Positions 1 through 20,523 of a stretch of 64,000 nucleotides of DNA are shown here, piece by piece. Position numbers and translations under genes: made by a program. Source of the DNA: Deltaproteobacteria bacterium (GTDB lineage Bacteria > Desulfobacterota > Desulfobulbia > Desulfobulbales > SURF-16); the NCBI GenBank assembly GCA_029939635.1, contig JAOZSN010000001.1, forward strand, positions 15,833-79,832, in the 5' to 3' direction. Under the pieces are notes generated by a model, which did no database searches, was not told where the DNA came from, and saw nothing but the letters and a program-made list of their open reading frames with translations. Each line of letters opens with the position of its first letter. Position 1 is the first letter of the stretch.

Positions 1-539
1 GCAGAAGGATCAAGCTCCCGTAGGGTTCTTCTCATCATAAAAAAATACCCGGCAAACCCTGTTATAGCGACAAAGAGAACAAGGCCCAGAAAGGACTTTT
101 TCAAGCCACCCAGTACGCCACCTTCCCATAAAGGGGCAAACTGCAACTCCACAGTTCCCCAGAGCTTTTGCCCCTTCAGGATGGGAACCTGGACATGGGT
201 CAGAGAAGAACGACCATCCCCAGAACTTTGCCAACGGGACAGATGGTTGCCACTCACTGCCAATAACGTCCCAGCAGAACTGCGCAGGGCGGCAGAAAGG
301 ATAGCATTATCCCTCTCAACCAATGACTTCAAGGTCATCCTGATGGAAGCAAGATCATCATTAGTGGCTGCAGCGGAAAATTGCAGGGCAAGAGACTCAC
401 AGAGATCCTTACGGGCCTCAAAAGCCACCTCATCTCGATTAGGGGCAATACCAATAAAATCTGCCACCAGGAGAAGACTCACGGTTAAAGCCATAATACC
501 GAGACTGATACGTGCTGCCGGAGTTTTAAAAAACTTCAT
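1..539 (-). CDS. Membrane-anchored sensor/signalling protein, N-terminal part (partial, runs off left edge)
   Basis: Absent from the ORF track because no stop falls in the window. The ATG at 539-537 overlaps the TGA (538-536) of the giant gene, giving an ATGA junction. My translation starts MKFFKTPAARISLGIMALTVSLLLVADF. It shows an N-terminal TM, a ~150-aa extracytoplasmic segment, a second TM (LGLVLFVAITGFAGYFFMM) and then RRTLRELDPS. Open for 179 codons to position 3. Confidence 0.6.
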   Translation of the reverse strand, partial: MKFFKTPAARISLGIMALTVSLLLVADFIGIAPNRDEVAFEARKDLCESLALQFSAAATNDDLASIRMTLKSLVERDNAILSAALRSSAGTLLAVSGNHLSRWQSSGDGRSSLTHVQVPILKGQKLWGTVELQFAPLWEGGVLGGLKKSFLGLVLFVAITGFAGYFFMMRRTLRELDPS

Positions 540-7525: not shown

Positions 7526-7528
7526 CGT

Positions 7529-8452
7529 TTAGTTCTCCAGGCTACTCAAATAGGTATCTGCAAAATTGACATCATCCTGGCTCTTACTAAAAACTGAGCC
7601 ATCCTGCTCTTTGTCTACTGCACCAGTCGCATCATCCAAGGGAAAACGGACTGTACATTTCAGCCCACCTGGAATGTGATAATCTGGGTTGGGCAGGGCC
7701 AGACGCACTCTGAAAGTTCCACTGGCTGAATCGATCACCCGCTCAACAATATCAACCGTGGCAATATACTCATTCTCCTGCTGTAATTCTGACTGAACTG
7801 CAACCTCCATCCCCTTTTCAATACGACCAAACATGGTGGCAGGCAGAACAACCTCTACCTTGAGAGGGTCAATACAGGCAATACGCAGCAATGGTTCCTC
7901 ATCCACAAATTCACCTTTGGAGACAAAGCGTTCCATCACCACCCCAGAGATGGGGCTGCTGATTCGACGCTGATTGAGCATGGCATTGGCCCGTTGCAGA
8001 TCAAGTTTGGCCAAGGTGCGATTCTCCTTGGCCTTTTGCAGACGATAGCGGGCAATGGCTACCTCTGTTTCAGCTTCATCTTTTTTCTGAGTGGAGATGG
8101 CCTTGCTGATAAACAGGTCATCAAGTCGATCATAGGCCCGCTCGGCAAAGGCCAGTTTTTCCTGCTGCAGCTTGATCTCCCCCTCAATCTTGGTCTGGGC
8201 CCCAGCCCTGGCCACCGTTGCCCTTTCAACCGAGGAATCGAGCAGGACCAACACATCTCCAGCCTTAACCTCATCACTCTTTTCAACCTTAATAGAGCGA
8301 ATCACCCCACCCATGGGGGTGCCGACATTAACCATCTCACTGGGTTCAATAAGACCGTCAAACAGTGGAGATTCAGCCTGCACCGTGGCACTCAGCCCCA
8401 GGGCACAGACAAGGATCATACAAAAAACTATTTTTTTGCCATTATTCATCAT
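7529..8452 (-). CDS. HlyD/membrane-fusion-protein family periplasmic adaptor
   Basis: N-terminal signal/anchor (MMNNGKKIVFCMILVCALGLSATVQA). Lipoyl-like motif (GGVIRSIKVEKSDEVKAGDVLVLLD), coiled-coil hairpin, and the return half of the lipoyl motif (ISSPISGVVMERFVSKGEFV). Its stop lies 3 nt before the start of the giant gene. Confidence 0.85.
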   Translation of the reverse strand: MMNNGKKIVFCMILVCALGLSATVQAESPLFDGLIEPSEMVNVGTPMGGVIRSIKVEKSDEVKAGDVLVLLDSSVERATVARAGAQTKIEGEIKLQQEKLAFAERAYDRLDDLFISKAISTQKKDEAETEVAIARYRLQKAKENRTLAKLDLQRANAMLNQRRISSPISGVVMERFVSKGEFVDEEPLLRIACIDPLKVEVVLPATMFGRIEKGMEVAVQSELQQENEYIATVDIVERVIDSASGTFRVRLALPNPDYHIPGGLKCTVRFPLDDATGAVDKEQDGSVFSKSQDDVNFADTYLSSLEN

Positions 8453-8528
8453 TAAAAAACCTCTCTTATTCTGTAATAGTTCACCAGGACGACTAAACTT
8501 AACGAAATATAAATCTGTAAAAGTTTAC

Positions 8529-10541
8529 CTATTCTAGGCTACCGCTAAAGGCCAACCTACGCCCCAGCTGCTTGTCAAGCTGGAGCAGATTGCGGCGCAG
8601 TCGTTTATGATGCTGCTGGGTTTTAAATTGTGCACCTCGCAAGGCAAGATGGCTTATTTTTTGGATTAATGGATATTTTCTTACGAGCAAAAGAGCAAGA
8701 ACGTCAAGGGACATCCGCCCCTTTTGCTGCTGCAATAATTCATCATTGAGGGACAAGATACACTCATAACTGCCGGGATCTCCCTGGCGTCCACAGCGAC
8801 CAAATAGTTGCCGATCAATACGCAGGGCCTCATTTTGTTCAGTGGCAATAACATGCAGACCACCAGCCGCTGCCACCCCGGCACCTAAAGGAATATCAGT
8901 TCCCCGTCCAGCCATATTGGTGGCCACGGTAATCTGTCCTGGCTGACCAGCTAAAGCGATAATCTCTGCCTCGTGGGCATCCTGCCTGGCATTAAGAACC
9001 TGATGCTTGATGCCAGCCAGGGTAAGCAATGCACTTACATGCTCGGAATCAGCCAAAGACCTGGTGCCAATGAGGACAGGACGACCAGCACTGCTGATGG
9101 CCACTACTTGTTTAATAACGGCCTGCCATTTGCTGGTTCGATCCGCCAAGACATGGACACCCTTATTTAGGCGACAACAGGGGCGATGGGTGGCTACCCG
9201 TTGTACCTGCAGATCATACACCGACCATAACTCACCACTCACCTCATTCACCGTGCCGCTCATACCAGCCAGACGTAAATATCTCCGAAAAAAACGTTGA
9301 TAGGTCAGGCGAGCAAGTGTTTGTCGCTGGCTACTGATGGTGCATTTTTCCTTAATCTCAATCATCTGATGCAGCCCGCGCTGCCAGGAGCGATCTGCCA
9401 TGGGGCGACCGGTATTCTCGTCAATAATGACCACCTTTCCCTCAGTAAGCAGATAATGACGATCACGATGATAGAGCTCACAGGCCACCAAGGCTTGACA
9501 GGCAAGTTCCTGCCGCCGTCTCTGCCCAGCCCAGACACCACCGGCCTCAGCACTTATCTCTGCCAGGCGCTGACTGCCCTTGTCACTCAGCGCAACACTA
9601 CGCCCCTGCATATCTATGGTATAATCAAGACCAACCTCAAGCTGACTGGCAAAGAACATGGCCGTACGATAGAGCTTGTTTTCATCCTCAGTGGCAATTT
9701 CTTTAGAAAGCAGCAAGGGCGTCCGTGCCTCATCAATGAGCACACTGTCAGCCTCATCAATAATGGCAAAACAAAGCCCCCTGAGCAGGGGCTTTTGCTT
9801 AGAGTCATCACTCAACACAGCCAATTTACGGCGCAGATGACCCTGCTCATTATCCAGCACCATCCGATCACGTAGATAATCAAAGGCCACCTGCTTGTTG
9901 GTGCAATAGGTAATATCACAGTCATAGGCAGCACGACAGGCATCACTATCCATGGCTGCGGTAACCGTCCCCACCGTGAGGCCCAAGGCCTGGTAAAGAG
10001 GGGCCATGGTTTCAGCATCTCGACAGACCAGATATTCATTCACTGTAATGACATGGACAGGAATCCCGGCCAGGGCTGCAGTAGCAGCAGCCAGAGTGGC
10101 GGTGAGGGTCTTGCCTTCTCCGGTATCCAGCTCAGCCACCCGGCCCTGGATCATAATCCAGCCTCCCATGAGTTGGCTATCATAATGCCGCATACCTAAG
10201 GTGCGCTGGGCCATTTCCCTGATAAGAGCAAAAGCCTGGATAATCAATGCACGGTCAAGTCCCTGCTGACGGAGCTGTTGACTGACAGCAGCAAGCTGCT
10301 CCAAAATATCGCTTTCAGCTAAACCAATAAGTTCTTTGCCCTGCATGTTGATGGCTGCCACCACCTCAGCACAATGGTTATAACGAGAATTCAATGTCCG
10401 ATTAAACAAACCCTGTAGTCCATGGCCACAGCTGTCCAGCCAGCCCACATCCTGCCCCTTTTTCTCAGGATAGGCACCCCTGAGTAGTCCTGGACGCAGG
10501 CAATTGCCTATTTTTTGTATTTTCAACAATTCATCAAACAT
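8529..10541 (-). CDS. SecA-like ATPase paralogue, C-terminally truncated (motor domains plus PPXD-like insert only)
   Basis: Collinear with SecA: MRHYDSQLMGG, Walker A TGEGKTLTA, VTVNEYLVCRDAE, ITYCTNKQVAFDYLRD, Walker B IIDEADSVLIDEARTPL, IIDENTGRPMADRSWQRGLHQMIEIKE, TYQRFFRRY, ATNMAGRGTDI, GGLHVIATEQNEALRIDRQLFGRCGRQGDPG. It ends ~90 aa after that last motif at 670 aa. E. coli SecA continues for roughly 300 more residues. Confidence 0.85.
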   Translation of the reverse strand: MFDELLKIQKIGNCLRPGLLRGAYPEKKGQDVGWLDSCGHGLQGLFNRTLNSRYNHCAEVVAAINMQGKELIGLAESDILEQLAAVSQQLRQQGLDRALIIQAFALIREMAQRTLGMRHYDSQLMGGWIMIQGRVAELDTGEGKTLTATLAAATAALAGIPVHVITVNEYLVCRDAETMAPLYQALGLTVGTVTAAMDSDACRAAYDCDITYCTNKQVAFDYLRDRMVLDNEQGHLRRKLAVLSDDSKQKPLLRGLCFAIIDEADSVLIDEARTPLLLSKEIATEDENKLYRTAMFFASQLEVGLDYTIDMQGRSVALSDKGSQRLAEISAEAGGVWAGQRRRQELACQALVACELYHRDRHYLLTEGKVVIIDENTGRPMADRSWQRGLHQMIEIKEKCTISSQRQTLARLTYQRFFRRYLRLAGMSGTVNEVSGELWSVYDLQVQRVATHRPCCRLNKGVHVLADRTSKWQAVIKQVVAISSAGRPVLIGTRSLADSEHVSALLTLAGIKHQVLNARQDAHEAEIIALAGQPGQITVATNMAGRGTDIPLGAGVAAAGGLHVIATEQNEALRIDRQLFGRCGRQGDPGSYECILSLNDELLQQQKGRMSLDVLALLLVRKYPLIQKISHLALRGAQFKTQQHHKRLRRNLLQLDKQLGRRLAFSGSLE

Positions 10542-12678
10542 TAAATTGCCTCAAGAAAAGTTGTCGAAGAGAGCGATACCACTGCTGGCCAAGGGGAATT
10601 TTAGTATGATCAAAGCGGACATAGACCCGGCCACCAATTTTCATATCCTGTAACTCAGGGGGTAAAGCAAGTTCAAGCTGGAAGACCTTAGTCAAAGTAG
10701 TAAGGCCTTGGGGATCAGTCGGATCAACCGGAATGACACCACCCCCCTTGACCCCAAGGGTGGCAACAGGCAGACTATTGGCTGCTGCAGGCACCACTCT
10801 GGCAATGTTGGTTGTCATGACATGATTAAGACGTTCAACCGACCTGATCTGCACAGCCTCGGTCTGCTCCTGTACCAAGGAAATATCCTTATGACTCACA
10901 ACCAAGCGAACCATGGATGGTACATCCCCCACAACATAGCCCAGCAGAGCACCTTGGTTGACAAAACGACCTGGCAGACTTTGATCCTCTGGCAAGATGA
11001 ATATACCGTTGGCCTGGCTCCTGATAATGAGCTTAGCCAGGCGCTCCTGGTGTTGGTGCAAATCAGCCTTAAGAGTGGTAATCTCATCCAGCAGAATAGT
11101 GCGACGTACTATGGCCCGCAGAGGTTCAGCGGTATATTGGGCCTCTAGCTCCTGTAGGGTAGCGCTCAAAACTTCAGTCTCTGTAGTCAGAAAAGGATCA
11201 TCACACACCAACAACACATCACCCTTTTCCACCCTGCTACCAGCCGAAGTCATAACTTTGGCGACAACACCATCCACACCAACACGAACCTGCGACTGCT
11301 CTGGAACCCAAACCACCCCTTCTGCTCTGGTGTGAAAAGGAGCTGGCACCACCCCAAACAGCATGGTCAGTAATCCACTACTCAGCAAAGCAACCACACA
11401 CACCCTGCTATTCTTTTGTTGGCGCCCTGAACTATTGAAAAAGCGAGACATCGCCAATCCAGCAGGTTTCAATACCTGACTAAATGCTCCCCAGGCAGCC
11501 AGCAGAACACCGACAAAGAAAAACTTAGCGCCGACAAACAACAATAAGCCAGTAATAACCAGTAGCCGATAGATAAAGGCACAAATACCATACACCAACA
11601 GCCAAAACTCTTCGCCAGATGCAGTCACCGGCGATCTGGCCTCACTGATACCAAAAAGATAGCGCTGGACAAGATAGCCAAGATAGCGGTTGGAACGCTG
11701 AGCCAAATTAGGAATTTCTAGGCCATCGGCCAGAATAAAATAGCCGTCAAAACGTAAGAGAGGGTTACCGTTAAAGAGCAAGGTAGAAACCCCACCAATA
11801 AGCATGACATTATAGGCAATGGCACTGACCAAACCCGACTCCACGCTGAGCCAAACCCCTAAGGCCAAAGCAGCTATACTCACTTCAACAACCATGCCCA
11901 TGGCAGCCACAGCCATGCGGTGTCTCTTCTCTGAAAAAGCAGCAGAGGCAGAGGCCTCTACATAGGGAATGGGTGTAAATGCCAGGAGCATAATACCCAT
12001 TTCATGAACCTCTCCTCCCCACACCTTCACAGCAAAGGCGTGGCCGAACTCATGGAAAAGTTTAACCACAGGATAGACCAACCAGAGGATAAGGAGATTT
12101 GGGGGGGCAAGAACTCGATCAGCGATATTTTCACTGAGTTCAGGCCAATGAGTTAACGCCCCAACCAGTCCACTGCCCACCACGGCAAAAAGAAATAGGG
12201 CCATGGGCCAGCTAAAGAGAGGCTTGACAAGAAAGAGCCATTTTTGCAAAAAACGATCAGGGTCAACCAGGGGAAAACGCATGGCAAACGGGTTGGCAAT
12301 GGAATGTCGCCTATCATTTCCAGCTGCTTTTTTCTGGCGGCTGAACAGATCCAAGGTATCGGCACTCACATCGCAACGCAGCAAATCTGTACTGTGGAGC
12401 TGCCCCAGCAAGGTAATAACCTCATCCTGACTAGGGGCATCATCACCTAAAAAGTCCAGACCCGCCTGCCATATTTCAGCCAAACTCTTTGTGCCATCCA
12501 TCAAGCCGATGAGATAATAGGCCGCCATATTAAAACGCTGATGACGCCCAGAGGCAGTATCTCGCAACACATACCAGGGCTGCTGCCGATAATAATGGCG
12601 AGAGACCTGAACATGGCGACGCAGGCGCGGCTCAAGGGCTGCGATACGGTACCAGTATGTGCTATAGAGTGAGGACAT
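10534..12678 (-). CDS. Fusion protein: polytopic M50 (site-2 protease) metalloprotease domain plus C-terminal HlyD-like adaptor domain
   Basis: HEFGHA (HExxH) inside a hydrophobic segment, plus the downstream NGNPLLRFDGY motif (M50 NxxPxxxLDG-type). Several TM segments. The C-terminal half has a lipoyl-like motif (GVVAKVMTSAGSRVEKGDVLLVCDD), a coiled coil and a beta-barrel-like region. It overlaps the SecA-like start by 8 nt (ATGTTTGA). Confidence 0.8.
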   Translation of the reverse strand: MSSLYSTYWYRIAALEPRLRRHVQVSRHYYRQQPWYVLRDTASGRHQRFNMAAYYLIGLMDGTKSLAEIWQAGLDFLGDDAPSQDEVITLLGQLHSTDLLRCDVSADTLDLFSRQKKAAGNDRRHSIANPFAMRFPLVDPDRFLQKWLFLVKPLFSWPMALFLFAVVGSGLVGALTHWPELSENIADRVLAPPNLLILWLVYPVVKLFHEFGHAFAVKVWGGEVHEMGIMLLAFTPIPYVEASASAAFSEKRHRMAVAAMGMVVEVSIAALALGVWLSVESGLVSAIAYNVMLIGGVSTLLFNGNPLLRFDGYFILADGLEIPNLAQRSNRYLGYLVQRYLFGISEARSPVTASGEEFWLLVYGICAFIYRLLVITGLLLFVGAKFFFVGVLLAAWGAFSQVLKPAGLAMSRFFNSSGRQQKNSRVCVVALLSSGLLTMLFGVVPAPFHTRAEGVVWVPEQSQVRVGVDGVVAKVMTSAGSRVEKGDVLLVCDDPFLTTETEVLSATLQELEAQYTAEPLRAIVRRTILLDEITTLKADLHQHQERLAKLIIRSQANGIFILPEDQSLPGRFVNQGALLGYVVGDVPSMVRLVVSHKDISLVQEQTEAVQIRSVERLNHVMTTNIARVVPAAANSLPVATLGVKGGGVIPVDPTDPQGLTTLTKVFQLELALPPELQDMKIGGRVYVRFDHTKIPLGQQWYRSLRQLFLRQFNV

Positions 12679-12687
12679 AATAAAGTA

Positions 12688-12708
12688 GTCAGTTGTCAGT
12701 TGTCAGTT
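12688..12708. repeat. Three perfect tandem copies of heptamer GTCAGTT (degenerate copies continue to ~12725) in an intra-operon spacer
   Basis: Read directly: gtcagtt gtcagtt gtcagtt ggtg gcagttg gttgtt. It lies between the stop of the GAF::HlyD gene (12740) and the ATG of the M50::HlyD gene (12678). Confidence 0.7.
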
Positions 12709-12739
12709 GGTGGCAGTTGGTTGTTACTGATAACTGTAG

Positions 12740-14500
12740 TTAAGGCATCCACGTCCACATTTGCAAACGCAGCCAGTCAGTGAGGCGGTGGGTCCAGATC
12801 CAAATCAGCTTTCGCTGGTCAATTTTGATTTTTGCTACCCCTTCCATGCCAGGACGCAGCAGATCTGATTTTGAGTCAAGCAGACCCTCCACTCGGAAAT
12901 AATTACGCCCATCTTCACTAACCGATACCGGGGTTATCTTGGTAATGGAAAAGGATATACTCTTTGTTACCAGCCCAGAAAGAATCAGGTCACCCTGCTG
13001 ACCGGTCTTAATAAAACCGATATCTCGCTCGTCAACCTTGACAATGAGGCGATAGGCATCTAAGGGGGCAACCTCAAATAATACCTCGCCCCGTTGCACT
13101 GGCGCACCTAGGCTCTGACTGAGATCACCACTGATTACCAGACCAGAAAAAGGGGCAACAAGACGGGTGCGCAACAGCTGCTTTTCCACCAATTTCAACT
13201 GTGCATCTGCCTGTAATATTCTGGCTTTAAGAATAGTGGATTCGGACTGATTACGCCCTGCCAAGGCATTGCGGTACTCTTTGCGAATTTGTTGGCGCTG
13301 GGAAAACCATTTTTGACGCAGCAAAAGAAGCTCTTTATTTTCCAGCTGAGCCAAGAGGTCTCCGTCTTGAACAATATCACCAGCCCGCACCGCAGCACTG
13401 GCCACATAGCCATCTTGCGGAGCCACCACCACTCGCTGCACACTAGGTTCAAGGGAAGAGTTTGATGCTACCCGAAAATCACCTTGGACAAGGAAAAGAA
13501 CAGCACACAATAGCAGGCTCGACAGGGTGGCAAATTTCAATTTGAAACACCGGGGCCCCACAAGCTTTAGGAGAAAGTTGGCAATAGGCTCAACGAGCTT
13601 CGAGGGCAACCAGATATCATCACGCCTTCTTGACTCAAGGGCAGGGCCAACCAAGGCACCAATCTGCTCACACTGGCTTGCAGTTTCAACATCAAAGGGC
13701 TTATCTGCCGCTCTTTCCAATAACAAGGAGCCAACAAGAGTACCATTATAGACAAGGGGAACCGTACAGACCGAGCCGACCTCAAACTCGTTACATAACC
13801 TGCTATGGGCCACAACAACCTGCAACGCACCATCCAGGGGTGGATAGAGCACTGTTTCCTGCTGATCCAAGGATTCATACATGGCATCTTTGATACCACT
13901 CATCATGCTGGTGCGACGATCAAAATTGGCGGTATTGGAGACAGCATAAATTTGTATGCCTGGCCCCTTACCAAAGCCGATACTCACCCTTTCACAATCA
14001 AGTCGCGTGGCTAGGCTGGTCACAACAGCAGTAGCTGCGTCTTGAAAATTTTCATGTTCCAGACTGGCAGCAACAAGCTCAACCAGGGTAAGTAACTGTT
14101 CCTTGGCCACTGATGCCTGCTGCTTAATCATGGCTTCAAGCCAGAAAGTACCAGTCTGCAGCTGTGCCATCACTTCTTGCTGGCGAGCAGGAGGGCGACT
14201 AGACATGGCCACGGCCACAACTCCTAAGAGTTTCCCTCCACTATATAAAGGACATGCTACAACGTCACACGGCTGCGCTGTTTCCTGCAGGGTCAAATCA
14301 AAATCCCTGACCAGGCACTGCTCTTCTTCCAGTGCTGTTTGGGCGGCGGCAACTACAGCTGGTTGGGATGAATTCTCGGGCCAGGATGTCAGCTGTGTGT
14401 AGGACCCTTTACCAGGGATACCTGTCAGGGCAACACCATAGACACAGCCCGAAACCTGCTTACACTGGAGAAGCAACCATTTCTGGATAAGTTGTTTCAT
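12740..14500 (-). CDS. Fusion protein: N-terminal GAF-like domain(s), one TM, C-terminal HlyD-like adaptor domain
   Basis: The N-terminal ~300 aa carry GAF-like patterns (PLYSGGKLLGVVAVAMSS; CTVPLVYNGTLVGSLLLERA). TM segment FATLSSLLLCAVLFLVQG. Then a lipoyl-like motif (VVAPQDGYVASAAVRAGDIVQDGDLLAQLE), a coiled coil, and VAPFSGLVISGDLSQSLGAPVQRGEVLFEV. Confidence 0.75.
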   Translation of the reverse strand: MKQLIQKWLLLQCKQVSGCVYGVALTGIPGKGSYTQLTSWPENSSQPAVVAAAQTALEEEQCLVRDFDLTLQETAQPCDVVACPLYSGGKLLGVVAVAMSSRPPARQQEVMAQLQTGTFWLEAMIKQQASVAKEQLLTLVELVAASLEHENFQDAATAVVTSLATRLDCERVSIGFGKGPGIQIYAVSNTANFDRRTSMMSGIKDAMYESLDQQETVLYPPLDGALQVVVAHSRLCNEFEVGSVCTVPLVYNGTLVGSLLLERAADKPFDVETASQCEQIGALVGPALESRRRDDIWLPSKLVEPIANFLLKLVGPRCFKLKFATLSSLLLCAVLFLVQGDFRVASNSSLEPSVQRVVVAPQDGYVASAAVRAGDIVQDGDLLAQLENKELLLLRQKWFSQRQQIRKEYRNALAGRNQSESTILKARILQADAQLKLVEKQLLRTRLVAPFSGLVISGDLSQSLGAPVQRGEVLFEVAPLDAYRLIVKVDERDIGFIKTGQQGDLILSGLVTKSISFSITKITPVSVSEDGRNYFRVEGLLDSKSDLLRPGMEGVAKIKIDQRKLIWIWTHRLTDWLRLQMWTWMP

Positions 14501-14593
14501 ACTAACACGACCATTTGCACTTTCCTTGGGGTCCTATCATACGGCAACCATTCAATTAAACTCTTAACGTCTTCCTTCATTGCATTTAGTATT

Positions 14594-14610
14594 AGCACTA
14601 TTTGTACCGC
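14594..14610 (-). promoter_or_regulatory. Candidate sigma-54 (-24/-12) promoter for the minus-strand secretion operon (weak match)
   Basis: The reverse complement reads GCGGTACAAATAGTGCT: GG-N10-GC spacing is correct, but the flanking bases match TGGCAC-N5-TTGCW only partly. About 95 nt upstream of the ATG at 14500. Confidence 0.3.
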
Positions 14611-14764
14611 ACACCCGAATCACCACTAAATAACTTAAAATTCAGTGCTCAACAGGATTACACTGCAGCCAAACCCTATCTCAGATTAGGTTGGTAGTAT
14701 TTCACTAATTTTCCTTTCAAAAAATCTTCCCCTCCAGCAGACAGAACCCAATATCACCAAACCA

Positions 14765-14809
14765 TGTCACAATATGACATTTTTTTACACAATGCGACAT
14801 TTTTTGTCG
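14765..14809. promoter_or_regulatory. Two 5-N5-5 palindromes (TGTCA-N5-TGACA at 14765-14779; CGACA-N5-TGTCG at 14795-14809), candidate enhancer-binding-protein sites
   Basis: Read directly. They lie between the two divergent candidate sigma-54 promoters. A GACATTTTTT half-site recurs at 14776, 14796 and 14869. Confidence 0.3.
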
Positions 14810-14896
14810 ATTTTACTGAGCAGAGCGCTTATCGTATATCCCCTGAAACCTACTCGCCACAGAAAACCGACATTTTTTTGCTTTCCTTACAATAAT

Positions 14897-14911
14897 TGGC
14901 GCATTTTTTGC
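14897..14911 (+). promoter_or_regulatory. Sigma-54 (-24/-12) promoter candidate upstream of the TolC-family gene
   Basis: TGGCGCATTTTTTGC: GG at 14898-14899 and GC at 14910-14911 with exactly 10 nt between them. Close to the TGGCAC-N5-TTGC consensus. About 160 nt upstream of the ATG at 15070, with a sigma-54 activator encoded in the same unit. Confidence 0.55.
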
Positions 14912-15069
14912 TGTTATCAACAAATATGTATCAAAGATGTCGTCAAGCAGTTGTTTTGAGTAAGCACGTTACAAATTTATTTTTTTCATATTAAAATTAA
15001 ATAGTTAGGCTGCAAACTCTAAAGTTGACAGCAAAAAAAAATACTCCCTGAAGTTTTCACGGTTAACCA

Positions 15070-16407
15070 ATGAATATTGCACCATATATATTTTGCTTTT
15101 TCATAGTGATTTTGCCGCCTAAAGCGTATAGCGCTGAGCAGTCGTCCCCAGCCCACATGAACCTGGCTGACTGCATTGATCTGGCCTTGGCTCATAGCCC
15201 TGATCTCGGCATGGCCCAAGCAACATTTGCTCAGAATAAGGCCTTGCTTGACAGTGCCAAAAAGAATTTATTGCCCTCATTCTCAGCCCATTACTCCTAT
15301 AAATACCAACCAAACTCCATCTATTCCCCTACAGATGAGTACGGCTATGGCCTCACAGCAGAACAACCTATCTATCAAGGTAAAGCCATTGTCACCAGCA
15401 TCAAACAGGCGGAAATATCTCTCAACTCTGCCCAGAAAGGAACTGACCGTATCATCAACGAGCTCATTTTCCAGGTCTACACCAACTATTTCAAAGTACT
15501 CAGGGCAGTCAAGGTGGCCACGGAAGCTCAAAATTCCGTCAACCGACTTAAAAGCCATAGGAGTGACGCCAAGGCCTTTTTTGATGCTGGGATTATCCCT
15601 CGCAATGATTTCCTACAAAGTGATGTGGAACTTGCCCAGGGAGAGCAAGACTTTGTTGATGCCCAGATAGAAGCCTTTATTGCTCGGGCAGAGTTGAACA
15701 TTTTATTGGGCCGCGACACAGACATGGCTCTGCATCTTGAAGATAATTATGCCAAAGAGCAACGAGAAAACAACTGGGATGACATCCTCCACTCAGCCCT
15801 GACCAATCGTCCTGAAATTATGCAGGCCAAACTAGGGGCTGAAATGGCCAAGAAGGAAGTGACCATTAAAAAAGCGCCTTTTCTGCCTAAAATCTCCCTA
15901 TCAGCCTCCTATGACAAACGAGGAGACAGAGCCGACGGGGCGCGATCGGATGAACTAGGTTGGCCAGCAGAAGAGAAAACCGTCAGCGCGGTGGCCACAT
16001 GGAAATTATGGACATGGCAAAAAAATAAAAACGAGATTACAGCGGCAAAAAAAGATGTCCGCCGCGCAAAAAAGGCAATCGCCCAGACCATTGATCGTGT
16101 CAGCCTGGAAACCAGAATTGCCTTTCAACGCCTGCAGCAGACAGAAAAGAGAATCAAGGTATCCGAACGAGCCATTACCCACGCAGAAGAAAATTATCGT
16201 ATCACCCAGGCCCGCTACCAATCACAAATTGCCACGTCAACCCAGGTGCTGGATGCCCAGGCGCTGCTCACCCAGGCAAAAACAAACTACTATGACTCTT
16301 TTTATGGCCATAAAGTTGCTCTGGCCGCAGTGGAGAGAGCCTCAGGCCGTTTGGGACAAAAATATTCTCACACAACCAATGAATCAGCAGAACAAGGACA
16401 ACCATGA
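15070..16407 (+). CDS. TolC-family outer-membrane efflux/secretion duct protein
   Basis: Signal peptide (MNIAPYIFCFFIVILPPKAYSA). Typical OEP start LADCIDLALAHSPDL. Two repeated OEP halves with coiled-coil regions. 445 aa. Confidence 0.9.
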   Translation: MNIAPYIFCFFIVILPPKAYSAEQSSPAHMNLADCIDLALAHSPDLGMAQATFAQNKALLDSAKKNLLPSFSAHYSYKYQPNSIYSPTDEYGYGLTAEQPIYQGKAIVTSIKQAEISLNSAQKGTDRIINELIFQVYTNYFKVLRAVKVATEAQNSVNRLKSHRSDAKAFFDAGIIPRNDFLQSDVELAQGEQDFVDAQIEAFIARAELNILLGRDTDMALHLEDNYAKEQRENNWDDILHSALTNRPEIMQAKLGAEMAKKEVTIKKAPFLPKISLSASYDKRGDRADGARSDELGWPAEEKTVSAVATWKLWTWQKNKNEITAAKKDVRRAKKAIAQTIDRVSLETRIAFQRLQQTEKRIKVSERAITHAEENYRITQARYQSQIATSTQVLDAQALLTQAKTNYYDSFYGHKVALAAVERASGRLGQKYSHTTNESAEQGQP

Positions 16408-17807
16408 TAGCCCCATCCACAGACCCCATGCATGCCCTTATTATTGATGATGACACACTCATTTTAGATGTCATTGAGGAATTTTTAGGACAACTAGGTA
16501 TCATCGCAGCCCGTGCTCTGGACGTACATAGTGCTAAAAGCAGCCTTGACCATCTTAATTTTGATCTGTGCATCACTGACCTGGGCCTGCCAGATGGCTC
16601 AGGCTTTGAGGTCGTCCACTATATTGCTGCAAATTTCCCCCATCTGCCAGTGGCAGTTGTTACCGCCGACACCAGTACAGAGTCTGCGGTGGCTGCTATG
16701 CAGGCCGGGGCCTTTGACTATCTCACCAAACCCTTGGAAAGAGATCGTCTCGCCTTACTGGTGACCAATGCCATCAACCTTAGTGCCAACACTGTCCCAG
16801 TAGACCAGGAAACACTCTTAGTTGGCCAATCTCCTGCCATCAAGGCCATTAATGCCATGGCCCAACGCTTGGCCCAAACCAATGCCCCTGTCCTAATTAC
16901 TGGTGAATCAGGTTCAGGAAAAGAATTAGTTGCCCGCACCATCCACCAATGCAGTCCCCGCCGAGATGCCCCCTTTATTGCCGTCAACTGCGGAGCTATT
17001 CCTGAAAACCTGATGGAAAGTGAATTTTTCGGCCACGAAAAAGGCTCTTTTACTGGTGCTGATCGGCGTAAACCAGGTCTCTTTGTTGCTGCTGAGGGTG
17101 GAACAATTTTCCTTGATGAAATCGCTGATCTCCCTCTGGCAATGCAGGTCAAAATGTTACGAATCCTCCAGGAGCGTGCCATCCGTCCCGTGGGCAGCAC
17201 CAATGAGTCACCCATTGATGTCCGTGTGCTGTCCGCCTCCCATAAAAACCTTAATACCGAGGTTTCCCTGGGACGTTTCAGAGAGGATCTCTACTACCGG
17301 GTTAATGTCATTTCCATTGCCATGCCCAGCCTTAAAGAACACCTGGAAGATATTCCCCAGCTCACCAAGACGTTTCTTCAAAAAATTGCTAGCAGGGACG
17401 GTAAGGCTTTTATTGATATCAGCGAAACAGCCCTAGCCCAGCTCAGCAAGGAGTCCTGGCCAGGAAATGTCCGCGAATTAAATAACCGCCTTGAACGGGC
17501 AGCAGCCCTCTACCAAGGGCATCGTATTGAAATAAACGATGTTATTACCCCCAGCACCCCAACCCATGACAGCCAACCGCAGCTTAGTTCAATAGAGGGA
17601 GTAACCACTGCCCTGCCAGTAGCACTCCCTGCCCTGCAACCCTACGGCAAAGACTCCCTTGACACCGTCTTGGCCGAAGTAGAAAAATTTTACGTCCTCC
17701 AGGCCATGGAGACATGCAAGTATAACAAGAATAAGGCCTCAAAATTGTTAGGAATTAACAACAGATCATTGCGCTATCGGCTGCAAAAATTTGATATTGA
17801 TTATTGA
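16404..17807 (+). CDS. Sigma-54-dependent response regulator (NtrC family: receiver + AAA+ + Fis-type HTH)
   Basis: Receiver domain (LIIDDD...DLGLPDGSG). AAA+ Walker A GESGSGKE. Sigma-54 contact loop ESEFFGHEKGSFTGA. C-terminal HTH NKNKASKLLGINNRSLRYRLQKF. Its ATG overlaps the TolC stop (ATGA). Confidence 0.9.
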   Translation: MIAPSTDPMHALIIDDDTLILDVIEEFLGQLGIIAARALDVHSAKSSLDHLNFDLCITDLGLPDGSGFEVVHYIAANFPHLPVAVVTADTSTESAVAAMQAGAFDYLTKPLERDRLALLVTNAINLSANTVPVDQETLLVGQSPAIKAINAMAQRLAQTNAPVLITGESGSGKELVARTIHQCSPRRDAPFIAVNCGAIPENLMESEFFGHEKGSFTGADRRKPGLFVAAEGGTIFLDEIADLPLAMQVKMLRILQERAIRPVGSTNESPIDVRVLSASHKNLNTEVSLGRFREDLYYRVNVISIAMPSLKEHLEDIPQLTKTFLQKIASRDGKAFIDISETALAQLSKESWPGNVRELNNRLERAAALYQGHRIEINDVITPSTPTHDSQPQLSSIEGVTTALPVALPALQPYGKDSLDTVLAEVEKFYVLQAMETCKYNKNKASKLLGINNRSLRYRLQKFDIDY

Positions 17808-17905: not shown

Positions 17906-18691
17906 CTAACTTGAAGCCGATGAGTAGCTACGCAACCCCAAACGCCAGGTAAAGATGAGCAGCAGGGTGAGAAAAACAGAGACAAGGCCAATATGCAGCA
18001 GGGTCAGCCAGGAAATACCGCTCAATAAGATCTGGGCCGGATAGGAGGCAATGAGCAGAAAGGGAAGCAGGGTAACGAGAAGCAGGCGAATAGGGCCATG
18101 AAAGACACGGTCAGGCCGTTCAGCAAACTGTTTAACGGCATAAAAAATCGCCTCAAAACCACGACCACTATGGGTCCAGAATACCGGCAGGATGAAGAAG
18201 AGGTGAATGACATAGTAGAGATAGGCACCATTGATAATGAGCAGGAGGTAGAGCAGGATCTGCGGGGCTGAAAAATCCCCAGGAAAACGCATGATAGCCC
18301 AGCTTAAAAGTCCAGCAGCAATAAGCAGGTTACAAAAAGAATTCGCGGCAAAATCACGGACACTGAGCATGAAGAGGGATGAAACCGGCCGCACCAGATA
18401 ATAGTCAAGATCACCTTTATTGATATACAGCGGCAGATGCCAGAGATTATTGGCCACCACAGTCATATGCAGGGCATCAGCCACAAAAAAGCCGCAAACA
18501 AAGATGAGCGCCTGATCAAAGTCCCAGCCCCCCACCAGACCGGTATGTTGATAGATGATCTGAAAAAAAGCAATATGAACCAGATAAAACATCGTGTCCA
18601 TGACAATGCGAAAGAAGAAATCCAGACGAAACTCCATGGCACGACTAAAGGAAAAACGCAAGAAATAGAGATAGAGCCTCACGTAACGCAT
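17906..18691 (-). CDS. ABC-2 family transporter permease
   Basis: 261 aa, about 6 hydrophobic segments. Adjacent to a second similar permease and an ABC ATPase, with 2-nt and overlapping junctions. Confidence 0.7.
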   Translation of the reverse strand: MRYVRLYLYFLRFSFSRAMEFRLDFFFRIVMDTMFYLVHIAFFQIIYQHTGLVGGWDFDQALIFVCGFFVADALHMTVVANNLWHLPLYINKGDLDYYLVRPVSSLFMLSVRDFAANSFCNLLIAAGLLSWAIMRFPGDFSAPQILLYLLLIINGAYLYYVIHLFFILPVFWTHSGRGFEAIFYAVKQFAERPDRVFHGPIRLLLVTLLPFLLIASYPAQILLSGISWLTLLHIGLVSVFLTLLLIFTWRLGLRSYSSASS

Positions 18692-18693
18692 AG

Positions 18694-19509
18694 TTAAATC
18701 CCCACCCCAGTATAACGCTTATTGCCCTGCCGCCACACCAAGCCACCCACCCCAGCCATGAGTAGCAACCAGACACTCATCACCAGCAGGCCGTGCATTA
18801 TTTCAGCAGGAGCCACCTGACCCACCATTATCTTTACAGGAAAATAGTAGAGATAAATAAATGGGGTATATTCCAATACAGCCAGCACATCAGCAGGAAA
18901 GAGTTCCATGGGCAGCATTGCCCCACCTAGTAGGGCACCGATAAAATGGAGCATGACCACCAGACTCCAGACATTATCGGCCCAAAAGGCGACAAACTGT
19001 AAGGGCAGACTCAGCAGAAAATAGAGGAGATTGGCCAACATGATCACCAACAGGGCCATGGCAATATTGGTCAAACTAAGCTGAAACTCTGCCGGCAATT
19101 CCAGGAAAAAAGGAGCAACCCCGGCAAAAATCACTATCTGTACCACCACCGGCAGCAAAGAACCAAGATGCTCAGCATATTTAAAACCCAGATATGAGGT
19201 GGGATAAAGCTGATAACGCGTCAAACCGCCATCATAGATATCAGTGGCAATAGTCATGATCTGCTGGCTACCCCGCACCAGCCGACCAATGAGAATAACC
19301 AGTAAATAATAGGTAATCATGCCACTCAAGCTATAGCCAGCAATGGTCTGCCCACCCAGATCCGCATAGATTGATTGCCATAAATAATACATCACCCCCA
19401 TGGCAGCCATAAAGGCAAACAGGGAGTTGACCCAAAAATCCACCCGATAGCTCATTTGCTTACGCAACTCCAGGCTGAACACCTGCCAAAAGACCAACAT
19501 ACCCCTCAT
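18694..19509 (-). CDS. ABC-2 family transporter permease
   Basis: 271 aa polytopic membrane protein. Overlaps the ATPase gene stop by 4 nt. Confidence 0.7.
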   Translation of the reverse strand: MRGMLVFWQVFSLELRKQMSYRVDFWVNSLFAFMAAMGVMYYLWQSIYADLGGQTIAGYSLSGMITYYLLVILIGRLVRGSQQIMTIATDIYDGGLTRYQLYPTSYLGFKYAEHLGSLLPVVVQIVIFAGVAPFFLELPAEFQLSLTNIAMALLVIMLANLLYFLLSLPLQFVAFWADNVWSLVVMLHFIGALLGGAMLPMELFPADVLAVLEYTPFIYLYYFPVKIMVGQVAPAEIMHGLLVMSVWLLLMAGVGGLVWRQGNKRYTGVGI

Positions 19510-20483
19510 CTTTTTTCCGCAAACATCTGTTCAATAACAGAGGCCACGTCCTCATCTTCGACACTGAGATCACTCACCCCACTGCCGCATAAAAGATGCT
19601 GGGTCACAGCAGCAACATCTTTTTCAGCCACCCGCAGACGCATATCTTCAGAACTTCTAGCAAGAACCTCAACCGGAATCGAACCAAGGCCCTGGTCAGC
19701 AAACTGCTCCGCTTTCAGGCGAATGGTCATTATCTTATGGCTGGCAAAACGGCTGACTACCTCATGGAGAGGCCCGTCAAAAATAAAGCCGCCATCACGC
19801 ATGATGATAATCCTTTTACAGAGCCGTTCAATATCCTCCATATAATGACTGGTGAGGATCATGGCTGGCCTGACTTCCTGGCGGTAATGGAGAATAAAAT
19901 CACGGATAGCACGCTGGGCCGCCAAATCAAGACCAATGGTAGGCTCGTCAAGAAAGACCACCTGTGGTTTATGCAGCAGGGCAGCGATGAGCTCCATCTT
20001 CATCCGTTCCCCTAAGGAAAGGCGACGGATTTGAATACCTAGTTCAGCTCGCACGTCCAATATATCCAGCAAAGAATTAAGCATTTCCTCATGTTCCTTA
20101 ATAGGAACCTGATAAATCTCCCGCAACAACAAGAAGCAATCAGCAGCAGGCAAATCCCACCAAAGTTGGGCCTTCTGACCCATGATAAGGGCAATGCGAC
20201 GGCGAAAATCATTATGGCGCTGCCAGGGATCATGGCCAAGAACCTGTACGCTACCAGCACTGGGATGAATGATACCAGCCAACATCTTGATAATGGTGGT
20301 CTTGCCAGCACCATTAGCACCCACCAGACCAAGAATTTCCCCTTCAACCACCTGGAAGGAGACATGATCCACCGCTATCTTGGTCACCGTGTCACGACTG
20401 AAGAGGGATTTCAAGGAGGCCTTCAAACCAGCGGCCTTGCGATGTACCTGAAACTCCTTATGGAGATTTTCTACCTTGATCAT
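19506..20483 (-). CDS. ABC transporter ATP-binding protein
   Basis: Walker A GANGAGKTT, signature LSLGERMK, Walker B VVFLDEPT. I moved the start to the MIKVENLHKEF methionine (ATG at 20483), because the tracked ORF start (20621) would overlap the topB 3' end. Confidence 0.9.
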   Translation of the reverse strand: MIKVENLHKEFQVHRKAAGLKASLKSLFSRDTVTKIAVDHVSFQVVEGEILGLVGANGAGKTTIIKMLAGIIHPSAGSVQVLGHDPWQRHNDFRRRIALIMGQKAQLWWDLPAADCFLLLREIYQVPIKEHEEMLNSLLDILDVRAELGIQIRRLSLGERMKMELIAALLHKPQVVFLDEPTIGLDLAAQRAIRDFILHYRQEVRPAMILTSHYMEDIERLCKRIIIMRDGGFIFDGPLHEVVSRFASHKIMTIRLKAEQFADQGLGSIPVEVLARSSEDMRLRVAEKDVAAVTQHLLCGSGVSDLSVEDEDVASVIEQMFAEKR

Positions 20484-20523
20484 GATTTTTTCTTTATATC
20501 CTGCCCATCCTGTTAATCCTGTC

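Follow-up and report, generated by a model that had tools for sequence, protein, structure and literature searches.

Organization of the locus

The DNA analyzed here, referred to as the window, is a stretch of 64,000 nucleotides from contig JAOZSN010000001.1 of a Deltaproteobacteria bacterium of the Desulfobulbales lineage SURF-16 (assembly GCA_029939635.1, positions 15,833 to 79,832 of the forward strand). The gene under study encodes a MacA/HlyD-type inner-membrane periplasmic adaptor, also called a membrane-fusion protein (MFP), in which a tandem GAF module of ~318 residues stands in place of the usual short cytoplasmic tail. The gene heads a tight minus-strand operon and opens a conserved module of four genes, which encode the tandem-GAF adaptor, a fusion of a PqqD-like domain with an M50-type metalloprotease and an MFP module (the M50 fusion), a SecA-like ATPase and a small adaptor, which is the third MFP module of the operon. 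The gene of a giant protein, the presumed cargo, begins 3 nucleotides past the stop codon of the third adaptor. The features of the locus and their coordinates are collected in Table 1.

Table 1 Features of the tandem-GAF adaptor locus, in positions of the window.
Feature	Positions	Strand	Basis or remarks
Tandem-GAF / single transmembrane (TM) helix / MacA-like periplasmic adaptor gene	12740–14500	−	586 amino acids plus stop; list of open reading frames (ORFs), Pfam, NCBIfam, AlphaFold2, Foldseek
GAF-A, residues 1–128, divergent	14117–14500	−	AlphaFold2 secondary structure; Foldseek; partial GAF_2 match
GAF-B, residues 133–295	13616–14104	−	Pfam GAF above threshold
Linker helix from GAF-B (to about residue 314) and single TM helix (319–340)	13481–13615	−	AlphaFold2, hydropathy
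Periplasmic adaptor (MFP) core, residues 341–564: lipoyl, short α-hairpin 389–443, β-barrel / membrane-proximal strands	12809–13480	−	Pfam, NCBIfam, Foldseek
Trp-rich amphipathic C-terminal helix, residues 565–586 (KLIWIWTHRLTDWLRLQMWTWMP)	12743–12808	−	AlphaFold2, helix 565–584
PqqD-like N-terminal domain + M50-type intramembrane metalloprotease + TM + MFP module, 714 amino acids	10534–12678	−	Pfam, NCBIfam
SecA-like ATPase, 670 amino acids: DEAD motor + preprotein cross-linking domain	8529–10541	−	Pfam; overlaps the M50 gene by 8 nucleotides
Third adaptor, 307 amino acids, N-terminal signal/anchor segment	7529–8452	−	HlyD_D23, RND_mfp
Presumed cargo, 2329 amino acids	536–7525	−	Pfam Cadherin ×14 (9e-92), DUF4347 1.5e-52 at residues 75–243
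LEPR-XLL-type motif of the presumed cargo, residues 15–27 (YEELEARLLFSAD)	7445–7483	−	Preceded by the basic stretch VARKYHTKQ
Partial ORF following the giant gene, truncated at the start of the window	3–548	−	phmmer E 2.8e-67
Sigma-54 −24/−12-like element (TGGCGCATTTTTTGCT)	14897–14912	+	158 nucleotides upstream of the TolC-like gene
TolC-family outer-membrane channel, 445 amino acids, divergent	15070–16407	+	Pfam OEP 8.7e-66, two repeats
NtrC-type sigma-54-dependent response regulator	16404–17807	+	Response_reg, Sigma54_activat, HTH_8; overlaps the TolC-like gene by 4 nucleotides
ABC-2-type transporter: two ABC2_membrane_6 permeases and an ATPase	17906–20621	−	~3.4 kb from the GAF gene

Structure of the tandem-GAF adaptor

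The reading frame of the adaptor is intact and begins with ATG. This start is supported because the homologs begin at the same aligned methionine; Met1 is aligned in 91% of 99 family sequences, comprising the window protein and 98 diverse relatives. AlphaFold2 models were calculated from a 50-sequence alignment for the full-length protein (pLDDT 83.6) and for residues 1–320 (pLDDT 81.5). In the models, both halves of the N-terminal region, residues 1–128 and 133–295, form α/β domains with the GAF-type order of elements. GAF-A comprises an α-helix (residues 2–15), two β-strands (19–27 and 34–40), a second helix (47–59), three further strands (63–70, 77–87 and 90–100) and a long closing helix (104–128). 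The Pfam GAF_2 model scores 30.0 bits over the whole protein, just above its cut-off of 28.6, with the best stretch at residues 73–111; GAF-A taken by itself falls under the Pfam threshold. Trp8, Leu9, Trp40, Pro41, Pro84 and Trp120 of this domain are kept across relatives at 30–50% identity. GAF-B is recognized by the Pfam GAF model PF01590 with 43.1 bits against a cut-off of 22.4 (E 7.8e-11, best stretch 153–286). Its conserved residues are Cys169, Arg171, Gly175, Ser188, the Ala206-Met207-x-Glu209 segment, Gln213, Pro220, Gly257 and Glu262, and the polar set among them (Cys169, Arg171, Ser188, Met207, Glu209, Gln213 and Glu262, with Met207 counted in) is retained down to ~30% identity.

Comparison of the model of residues 1–320 with the Protein Data Bank (PDB) using Foldseek identified the tandem GAF-A/GAF-B modules of the phosphodiesterases PDE6, PDE5 and PDE2 and the GAF-PHY modules of phytochromes, with E-values of 6.6e-10 to 1e-8, a probability of 1.00 and 340–415 aligned columns spanning both domains. 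The top 50 matches are tandem-GAF or GAF-PHY proteins throughout. The GAF matches were obtained with this partial model, whereas the Foldseek list of the full-length model consists of adaptors only. As in the window protein, the phosphodiesterase and phytochrome modules contain two successive GAF folds joined by long helices, the last of which runs into the output part. The sequence identity to these modules is 8–16%, and the RMSD is 17–22 Å because the relative orientation of the two domains differs. Unlike these proteins, the adaptor carries no NKFDE motif, and its output part is a TM helix and a periplasmic adaptor rather than an enzyme. The NKFDE motif (searched as N[KR]x5-30Fx3DE) is found in none of the 99 family sequences, which excludes only the classical signature of cyclic nucleotide binding. 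A sequence search of the PDB with residues 1–320 returned only noise (HIV gp120, nanobodies). No GAF domain of the PDB with a defined ligand was detected as similar by sequence, the best match of the family profile having an E-value of 0.033; the weak PDB matches of this profile are all GAF proteins. The first-pass annotation of this DNA had placed about 300 residues of GAF-like sequence ahead of a TM helix and had proposed a profile scan and a structure prediction as checks. Both were run and agree with it on the fold, which PF01590 detects in GAF-B and the models and Foldseek show twice; the extent is corrected to ~318 residues in two GAF domains.

Residues 321–339 constitute the single strong hydrophobic segment of the protein (Kyte–Doolittle 1.95). 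In the N-terminal model, residues 271–314 form one unbroken helix that leaves GAF-B, and in the full-length model the TM helix spans residues 319–337; Lys322, at the TM helix, is 96% conserved in the aligned family. Four Lys/Arg residues flank the TM helix on its N-terminal side and one on its C-terminal side, and therefore the first 318 residues are predicted to be cytoplasmic and the adaptor core periplasmic. The predicted topology is thus that of an inner-membrane anchor, N-in/C-out, and it bears out the earlier proposal that one TM helix joins a cytoplasmic GAF part to a genuine HlyD-type adaptor module.

The C-terminal half is matched by the Pfam models HlyD_3 (E 1.5e-20, residues 447–551), HlyD_D23 (E 1.5e-13, residues 356–552) and Biotin_lipoyl_2 (residues 360–387). 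The two helices of the modeled hairpin (389–414 and 418–443) are ~26 residues each and are followed by the barrel strands, so that in the model the protein has the architecture that defines periplasmic adaptors, a lipoyl domain interrupted by a hairpin and followed by a β-barrel. The best PDB match of the full-length model is MacA (Foldseek E 6.9e-18; entries 9qgy_G, 3fpp and 5nik), followed by EmrA, MexA, AcrA and ZneB, the adaptor matches ranging from 1e-18 to 1e-12. The NCBIfam adaptor models all score below their cut-offs: RND_mfp with 69.6 bits against 94.9 (E 2.2e-19), type_I_hlyD (TIGR01843) with 50.2 against 208.65 and MacA with 16.7 against 342. On these scores, the protein is not a member of any named adaptor family. 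MacA resembles the window adaptor in its periplasmic part and in having one N-terminal TM anchor, but the identity is ~21%, the window has no MacB-type partner, and the window adaptor ends in an additional Trp-rich helix. We know of no folded cytoplasmic domain in MacA. In the C-terminal helix, Trp567, Ile568, Trp576 and Trp582 are at least 90% conserved; to our knowledge, MacA, AcrA and HlyD lack a comparable Trp-rich helix. This helix may sit on the periplasmic face of the inner membrane.

Conservation of the four-gene module

A word-indexed search returned more than 1397 homologs of the adaptor, nearly all of ~588 amino acids, the closest of which is 59% identical. Their source records describe them as RND/HlyD adaptors, 'GAF domain-containing protein', 'RND family efflux transporter MFP subunit' or 'multidrug resistance efflux pump', and the Prokaryotic Genome Annotation Pipeline (PGAP) assigns the name 'efflux RND transporter periplasmic adaptor subunit'. 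An exhaustive HMMER search with residues 1–320 alone yielded 2140 clusters at 50% identity with E ≤ 1e-3, of which 1276 have E ≤ 1e-10. Among the 150 matches listed, nearly all begin within ~60 residues of the N-terminus and the full-length ones are mostly 570–650 amino acids long; from this N-terminal position and uniform length it follows that the tandem GAF and the adaptor form a fixed unit. In a scan of one genome per species, relatives are encoded in 531 genomes.

Synteny was counted in the best 80 related loci, with the loci that contain enough DNA as denominators. These loci come from Desulfobacterota, Gamma- and Alphaproteobacteria, Nitrospirota, Methylomirabilota/Rokubacteria, Gemmatimonadota and Myxococcota, and homologs were found in Desulfosarcina, Methylosinus, Rhizobium and Nitrospira. 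The gene that follows the GAF adaptor encodes the M50 fusion in 64 of 65 loci, the SecA-like gene is then present in all 57 loci that are long enough, and the small adaptor in 48 of 50. The first-pass annotation had suggested checking such co-occurrence, and it proves to be close to invariant. The gene order is kept in the complete genome of Desulfosarcina alkanivorans and on ~12 alphaproteobacterial megaplasmids, where the sets of records matched by three of the proteins coincide. No conserved ABC, RND or MFS partner gene accompanies the cassette across the related loci.

Two further, lineage-specific families occur at some loci and are missing from the window. The gene of a DUF3467 protein of ~110–130 amino acids immediately precedes that of the GAF adaptor, in the same orientation, in 12 loci (L035, L038, L043, L052, L057, L061, L068, L069, L076, L078, L080 and L085), and a SapC-family protein lies in or beside the cassette in five (L047, L050, L051, L064 and L084). 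The metagenome contig of locus L001 (ENA ERZ23491059, scaffold_13024) is 99.8% identical to positions 3737–17181 of the window with three gap openings. On it the SecA-like gene is called as two (306 and 369 amino acids), and the giant gene is broken, its cadherin repeats cross-matching at 75–87%. These differences probably reflect assembly or frameshift rather than biology.

Partner proteins

In the M50 fusion, Pfam finds a weak Peptidase_M50/M50B match, with ~6 hydrophobic segments in the protein, and HlyD-type matches in the C-terminal part (HlyD_3 4e-5, HlyD_D23 1.5e-4). Its best NCBIfam matches are proteases of ribosomally synthesized and post-translationally modified peptide (RiPP) pathways, daptide_HExxH (1.1e-43) and YydH/LiaK (5e-6), both far under their cut-offs. 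The sequences HEFGH and NGNPLLRFDG correspond to the M50 active-site signatures HExxH and NxxPxxxxDG, and both signatures are present in 62 of 65 homologs. Residues 36–100 (positions 12379–12573, minus strand) match the Pfam PqqD profile over its full length with an E-value of 0.019, below the cut-off. PqqD-like domains are leader-peptide recognition elements in RiPP pathways, and therefore recognition of a cargo leader may reside in this domain rather than in the GAF module. PGAP names for homologs of the fusion include 'PqqD family protein', 'site-2 protease family protein' and 'M50 family metallopeptidase'.

The SecA-like ATPase is matched by SecA_DEAD (1.6e-99), SecA_PP_bind (3.5e-24) and P-loop_SecA (8.4e-51) of Pfam. 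It covers positions 13–605 of the 789-position SecA model, and all SecA and SecA2 models of NCBIfam score below their cut-offs. It lacks the C-terminal third of SecA and, to judge from the SecA domain order, with it the helical wing and the two-helix-finger region. The Walker A (GxGKT) and DExD motifs are present in all 60 homologs compared, and from their conserved catalytic motifs both the M50 and the SecA-like enzymes look active. In RefSeq/PGAP, the ATPase is called 'prepilin peptidase' in two plasmid records (L084, 16827–18851; L085, 11219–13135) and elsewhere 'DEAD/DEAH box helicase' or 'preprotein translocase subunit SecA'.

The third adaptor has a hydrophobic N-terminus (residues 8–26) and matches HlyD_D23 (5.1e-19) and RND_mfp (3.6e-38), the latter with 131 bits against the cut-off of 94.9. 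All three adaptor modules of the operon have HlyD-type matches and are at most 24–28% identical to each other, in short local alignments; the earlier description of them as three distinct MFP modules is upheld.

The giant neighbor and its N-terminal motif

The giant protein contains no Sec-type signal, as no 19-residue segment of it reaches a hydropathy of 1.6, and it has no Pfam HemolysinCabind match that would indicate RTX repeats. At 25 of 41 loci the cassette is directly followed by a giant ORF bearing DUF4347, and most of the remaining loci have another giant ORF upstream; those upstream ORFs that were examined carry PKD/PPC/He_PIG domains, RTX repeats (for example L047) or LamG. Alignment of the giant neighbors revealed a common N-terminal pattern consisting of a basic stretch, the motif [YF]EELE(P/Q/A)R(V/L)LFSAD, an acidic linker and, usually, DUF4347. 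The expression [LMVI]E.R.[LMVI][LFM]S has 38 matches in 840,000 residues of ORFs from 83 loci, against ~2 expected by chance in a rough estimate. All 38 are near the N-terminus of an ORF adjoining the cassette, and nearly all of these ORFs are large or cut by the end of the locus. The motif also occurs in neighboring ORFs in which DUF4347 went undetected. The loci with the motif are L002, L007–L009, L013–L017, L019, L021–L029, L031, L036, L039, L041, L044, L045, L048, L053, L054, L056, L059, L067, L070 and L075–L079.

The motif is related to the NCBIfam model NF012209 (LEPR-8K), which describes an N-terminal motif of ~24 residues and has a cut-off of 17 bits. Orthologous N-termini score 25.2 and 19.8 bits. 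The N-terminus of the window protein scores 13.6 bits (E 0.04), below that cut-off, and YEELEARLLFSAD aligns with the orthologs that score. A Pseudosulfitobacter plasmid encodes, immediately upstream of the GAF adaptor, a protein of ~12,900 amino acids that PGAP names 'LEPR-XLL domain-containing protein'. The basic stretch together with the LEPR-XLL motif looks like a targeting or leader signal of the system, and no literature linking the motif to the cassette was found. At the other end of the giant protein, the last ~80 residues (positions 539–790, minus strand) include a segment of moderate hydrophobicity, the motif PLWKGFDP and a cluster rich in Lys (…YLLRAGSLFSSFLASVPLWKGFDPISVLILPKKKEKKK…). 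A 1589-residue DUF4347 protein at L023 (16829–21595) has a closely similar ending (…YLLRAGSMVASLLSSLPVWRGFDPIAIFSGTKKKPKSK…). The ending shared by these two C-termini, the only ones compared, could be a C-terminal anchor or retention element.

Relation to a previously described module and to known exporters

Kamneva, Poudel and Ward (PLoS One, 2015; PMC4452313) had already described the four-gene module from comparative genomics, as a 'secondary SecA_DEAD' protein co-encoded with three HlyD-domain proteins, one with weak Peptidase_M50 similarity and one with a GAF domain. The authors proposed a machine resembling type I secretion systems (T1SS), in which SecA_DEAD would serve as ATPase and the M50 protein would form the membrane component. 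In Table S2 of that paper the GAF adaptor lies two genes from SecA_DEAD in R. pomeroyi, M. extorquens, B. avium, A. xylosoxidans, D. oleovorans, Ca. Nitrospira defluvii and others, and SapC and a small conserved hypothetical protein are frequent neighbors. DUF3467 in our loci occupies the position of that hypothetical protein, directly upstream of the GAF gene. Cluster 3 of the paper combines GAF, HlyD and biotin_lipoyl (eggNOG NOG74050) and includes META1p2402, SPO2715, BAV1943 and Dole_0618. The locus described there has the same four proteins in the same order as the window (META1p2402–2399), an occasional OEP/TolC neighbor and no ABC transporter; the two were matched by domains and gene order. 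The main text and Table S2 name no cargo and the paper calls the M50 similarity weak, whereas here giant neighbors with a LEPR-XLL-type motif and usually DUF4347 are found, and the M50 fusion has both catalytic motifs conserved and a PqqD-like domain. The window locus thus differs from the earlier one in what was noticed, not in kind. Beyond that main text and Table S2, the new observations are the LEPR-XLL/DUF4347 giant neighbors and the conserved catalytic motifs of the M50 and SecA-like proteins. The GAF adaptor, from an uncultured bacterium, is a further member of a family and module known computationally and uncharacterized experimentally, no experimental follow-up of the module having been found in the literature searched. 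Papers on Omnitrophota giants with SecA domains, on Chlorochromatium symbiosis proteins and on Achromobacter ArtA were considered and set aside as they concern other systems.

The first-pass annotation had taken a short cytoplasmic tail as the norm for MFPs. This needs qualifying for adaptors of T1SS/ABC/MFS type, whose cytoplasmic domains were already known to be sizeable and, though of unknown structure, to be indispensable for recognizing substrates and for assembly (PMC8277102, 2021). Three MFP modules in one operon are unusual, as had been claimed, when compared with textbook tripartite pumps, but they are the rule in a conserved and widespread module (PMC4452313). More than one kind of adaptor in one tripartite assembly has a precedent in TriABC-OpmH of Pseudomonas aeruginosa, in which TriABC uses two different adaptors (PMC8277102); that system has an RND pump, whereas the window has three adaptor modules, one fused to M50 and one to a tandem GAF, and no RND pump.

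HlyD shares with the window adaptor a single N-terminal TM anchor, a cytoplasmic N-terminal part and a periplasmic lipoyl/hairpin/β-barrel part. The cytoplasmic part of HlyD is ~60 residues long, in contrast to the folded tandem GAF of ~318 residues of the window adaptor, whose hairpin is short. The HlyB-HlyD-TolC system likewise has a large repeat-protein cargo encoded alongside, as presumed for the window, and a TolC partner, for which the divergent TolC-like gene is the candidate here. However, the window operon has no ABC transporter, its presumed cargo has no RTX repeats, and the conserved targeting-like motif is N-terminal, whereas that of HlyD-type systems is C-terminal. Canonical type I secretion is marked by an ABC energizer, an adaptor that reaches the TIGR01843 cut-off and a cargo with a C-terminal signal, usually with RTX repeats; the window operon does not match this, having no ABC exporter, a TIGR01843 score far below the cut-off and no HemolysinCabind match in the presumed cargo.

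Proposed function of the module

We favor, with moderate confidence, the interpretation that the module is a TolC-dependent trans-envelope exporter and that the tandem GAF serves one of its adaptors as a cytoplasmic end for coupling or docking. An exporter is proposed because the SecA-like, M50 and adaptor partners are near-invariant and no ABC, RND or MFS pump is conserved with them. The giant neighbor is proposed as the cargo because all the motif matches fall in the N-termini of neighboring proteins, and because of the NF012209 matches, DUF4347 and the lack of a hydrophobic signal. A docking role for the GAF module is proposed because T1SS adaptors depend on their cytoplasmic domains to recognize substrates and to assemble (PMC8277102); the modeled continuous helix that leads from GAF-B to the membrane agrees with it.

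In such a machine, the giant surface protein would be exported across the envelope in one step through TolC. The SecA-like motor, with its preprotein-binding domain kept, would take the place of an ABC transporter in providing energy and polypeptide binding, and the polytopic M50 protein would be the inner-membrane component. An N-terminal leader could be recognized by the PqqD-like domain of the M50 fusion and possibly trimmed by its intact active site. The three divergent adaptors may jointly form a mixed periplasmic duct to TolC. The tandem GAF probably dimerizes and, by analogy with the cytoplasmic domain of HlyD, would dock the ATPase, the cargo leader or both; its occupancy could be relayed to the periplasmic part along the helix between GAF-B and the TM segment and so permit the duct to assemble. 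A small molecule might additionally act on GAF-B in this scheme, but such an input is not required by the data.

Several points weigh against the exporter and docking interpretation. We infer export, the identity of the cargo, the use of the ATPase, the activity of the protease and the function of the GAF module from domain content and gene neighborhood. The apparent absence of the two-helix finger makes polypeptide movement by the SecA-like ATPase hard to explain. Arg171, Ser188, Glu209, Gln213 and Glu262 of GAF-B are as compatible with a ligand site as with a protein interface. In microarrays of M. extorquens AM1, only the GAF gene seemed to be expressed, and an internal terminator was proposed (PMC4452313); this hints at a role separable from the operon. 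Some cluster-3 proteins of Planctomycetes and Verrucomicrobia are annotated only as membrane-fusion proteins, and the GAF part may be divergent or dispensable there.

The principal alternative, which builds on the sensor suggested in the first-pass annotation, is that the tandem GAF is a true small-molecule sensor (of a cyclic nucleotide, heme, or another metabolite or second messenger such as cyclic di-GMP) that switches the exporter on or off post-translationally. The score of GAF-B above the Pfam threshold and the deep conservation of its polar residues agree with a sensor. So do the nearest folds, which are the cyclic nucleotide-regulated tandem GAFs of PDE2, PDE5 and PDE6 and the chromophore-binding phytochromes, and the helix that closes GAF-B and continues into the TM helix, a continuity also seen in signaling proteins. 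Genes of nucleotide signaling also adjoin the cassette at times. GGDEF/EAL genes occur at 11 related loci, several of them directly upstream of the GAF gene (L011, L079 and L044). One of the 11 is the locus of Desulfogranum mediterraneum (L060), where a gene for a PAS-GGDEF-EAL protein lies upstream of the TolC-like and GAF-adaptor genes; the partial ORF at the start of the window is homologous to the N-terminal region of that protein. An adenylate/guanylate cyclase near the Methylosinus cassette is a single case. However, the GGDEF/EAL neighborhood is at most ~2-fold over a rough background and most loci are without it, so that these neighbors are a lead to a ligand rather than evidence for one. 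The absence of NKFDE and of any ligand-defined GAF similar by sequence also argues against a sensor, many GAF domains are ligand-free and act in dimerization or interaction, and the papers found on cyclic di-GMP receptors place binding in other domains (PilZ, the GGDEF I-site). We regard a dedicated sensor as plausible but less likely than docking.

A bolder form of the exporter interpretation would make the cassette a distinct, unnamed class of secretion machine, in which the giants enter TolC N-terminus-first and a second messenger or the cargo leader itself opens a cytoplasmic gate formed by the tandem GAF. We put this forward only tentatively. If the cassette were such a gated machine, the tandem-GAF adaptor would be the first adaptor known with a dedicated sensor domain.

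A role in RiPP-like peptide maturation and export, or in signaling by regulated intramembrane proteolysis, with the PqqD-like/M50 protein cutting a peptide or an anti-sigma-like factor under regulation by the GAF adaptor, appears improbable. It would account for the RiPP-protease matches of the M50 fusion, for its PqqD-like N-terminal domain of the RiPP-recognition type and for the expression of the GAF gene apart from the rest of the operon (PMC4452313), and the M50 family is best known for site-2 proteolysis. But the protease matches are all far under the family cut-offs, no conserved small precursor gene or modification enzyme was found in the 80+ loci examined, where the conserved neighbors are instead giant repeat proteins with a common N-terminal motif, and three adaptors, TolC and a preprotein-binding SecA motor exceed the needs of a signaling protease. 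An ordinary small-molecule efflux adaptor with a regulatory domain, its pump encoded elsewhere or by the nearby ABC-2 genes, as the efflux names in the databases, the structural likeness to MacA, AcrA and MexA and the distance of ~3.4 kb might suggest, is very improbable, given that every specific adaptor family, RND_mfp included, scores below its cut-off, that no RND, ABC or MFS gene is conserved and the ABC-2 genes occur only in the window, and that the genes almost always found with it encode the M50 fusion, the SecA-like ATPase and another adaptor.

Taken with the preferred interpretation, a TolC-dependent exporter with a docking GAF module, the wider system is plausibly an unrecognized variant of trans-envelope secretion with an identifiable cargo signal. 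If the function is as proposed, hundreds of species, including sulfate reducers, methanotrophs, nitrite oxidizers, rhizobia, roseobacters, Bordetella avium and Achromobacter xylosoxidans, would export some of their largest proteins via TolC with a SecA relative in place of an ABC transporter, and the tandem-GAF adaptor would be the most obvious point for cytoplasmic control. The present database names ('RND efflux adaptor', 'prepilin peptidase', 'PqqD family protein') hide the module. The motif shared by the cargo proteins, the intact-looking M50 and SecA-like motifs and the short list of invariant GAF-B residues offer handles for testing.

Flanking genes and regulation

The divergent TolC-like protein also matches the NCBIfam model type_I_sec_TolC (1.3e-39), below its cut-off. 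TolC-like genes are found in at least 11 related loci and at the Methylosinus cassette, and most loci have none within 10 kb. The linkage of the NtrC-type response regulator to the cassette is not conserved (3 of 80 loci). The ABC-2 transporter was considered as a missing inner-membrane pump and rejected, as it lies beside the cassette in 0 of 84 related loci, and a connection between the two is improbable.

In the spacer that separates the GAF and TolC-like genes (14501–15069), the minus strand contains no sigma-54 promoter with two or fewer mismatches that could serve the GAF gene, and scans for sigma-70 promoters and terminators gave no informative result. On the plus strand, TGGCGCATTTTTTGCT has one mismatch to TGGCAC-N5-TTGCW, an agreement that by itself is not above chance over the whole window. 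Upstream of it are two palindromes, ATGTCA-N5-TGACAT (14764–14780) and CGACA-N5-TGTCG (14795–14809), and three copies of GACATTTTTT (at 14776, 14796 and 14869), which occurs four times in the window against 0.33 expected. The sigma-54-like element is thus suitably placed, downstream of clustered GACATTTTTT repeats and near the gene for an NtrC-type activator, which follows the TolC-like gene and suggests an autoregulated sigma-54 unit.

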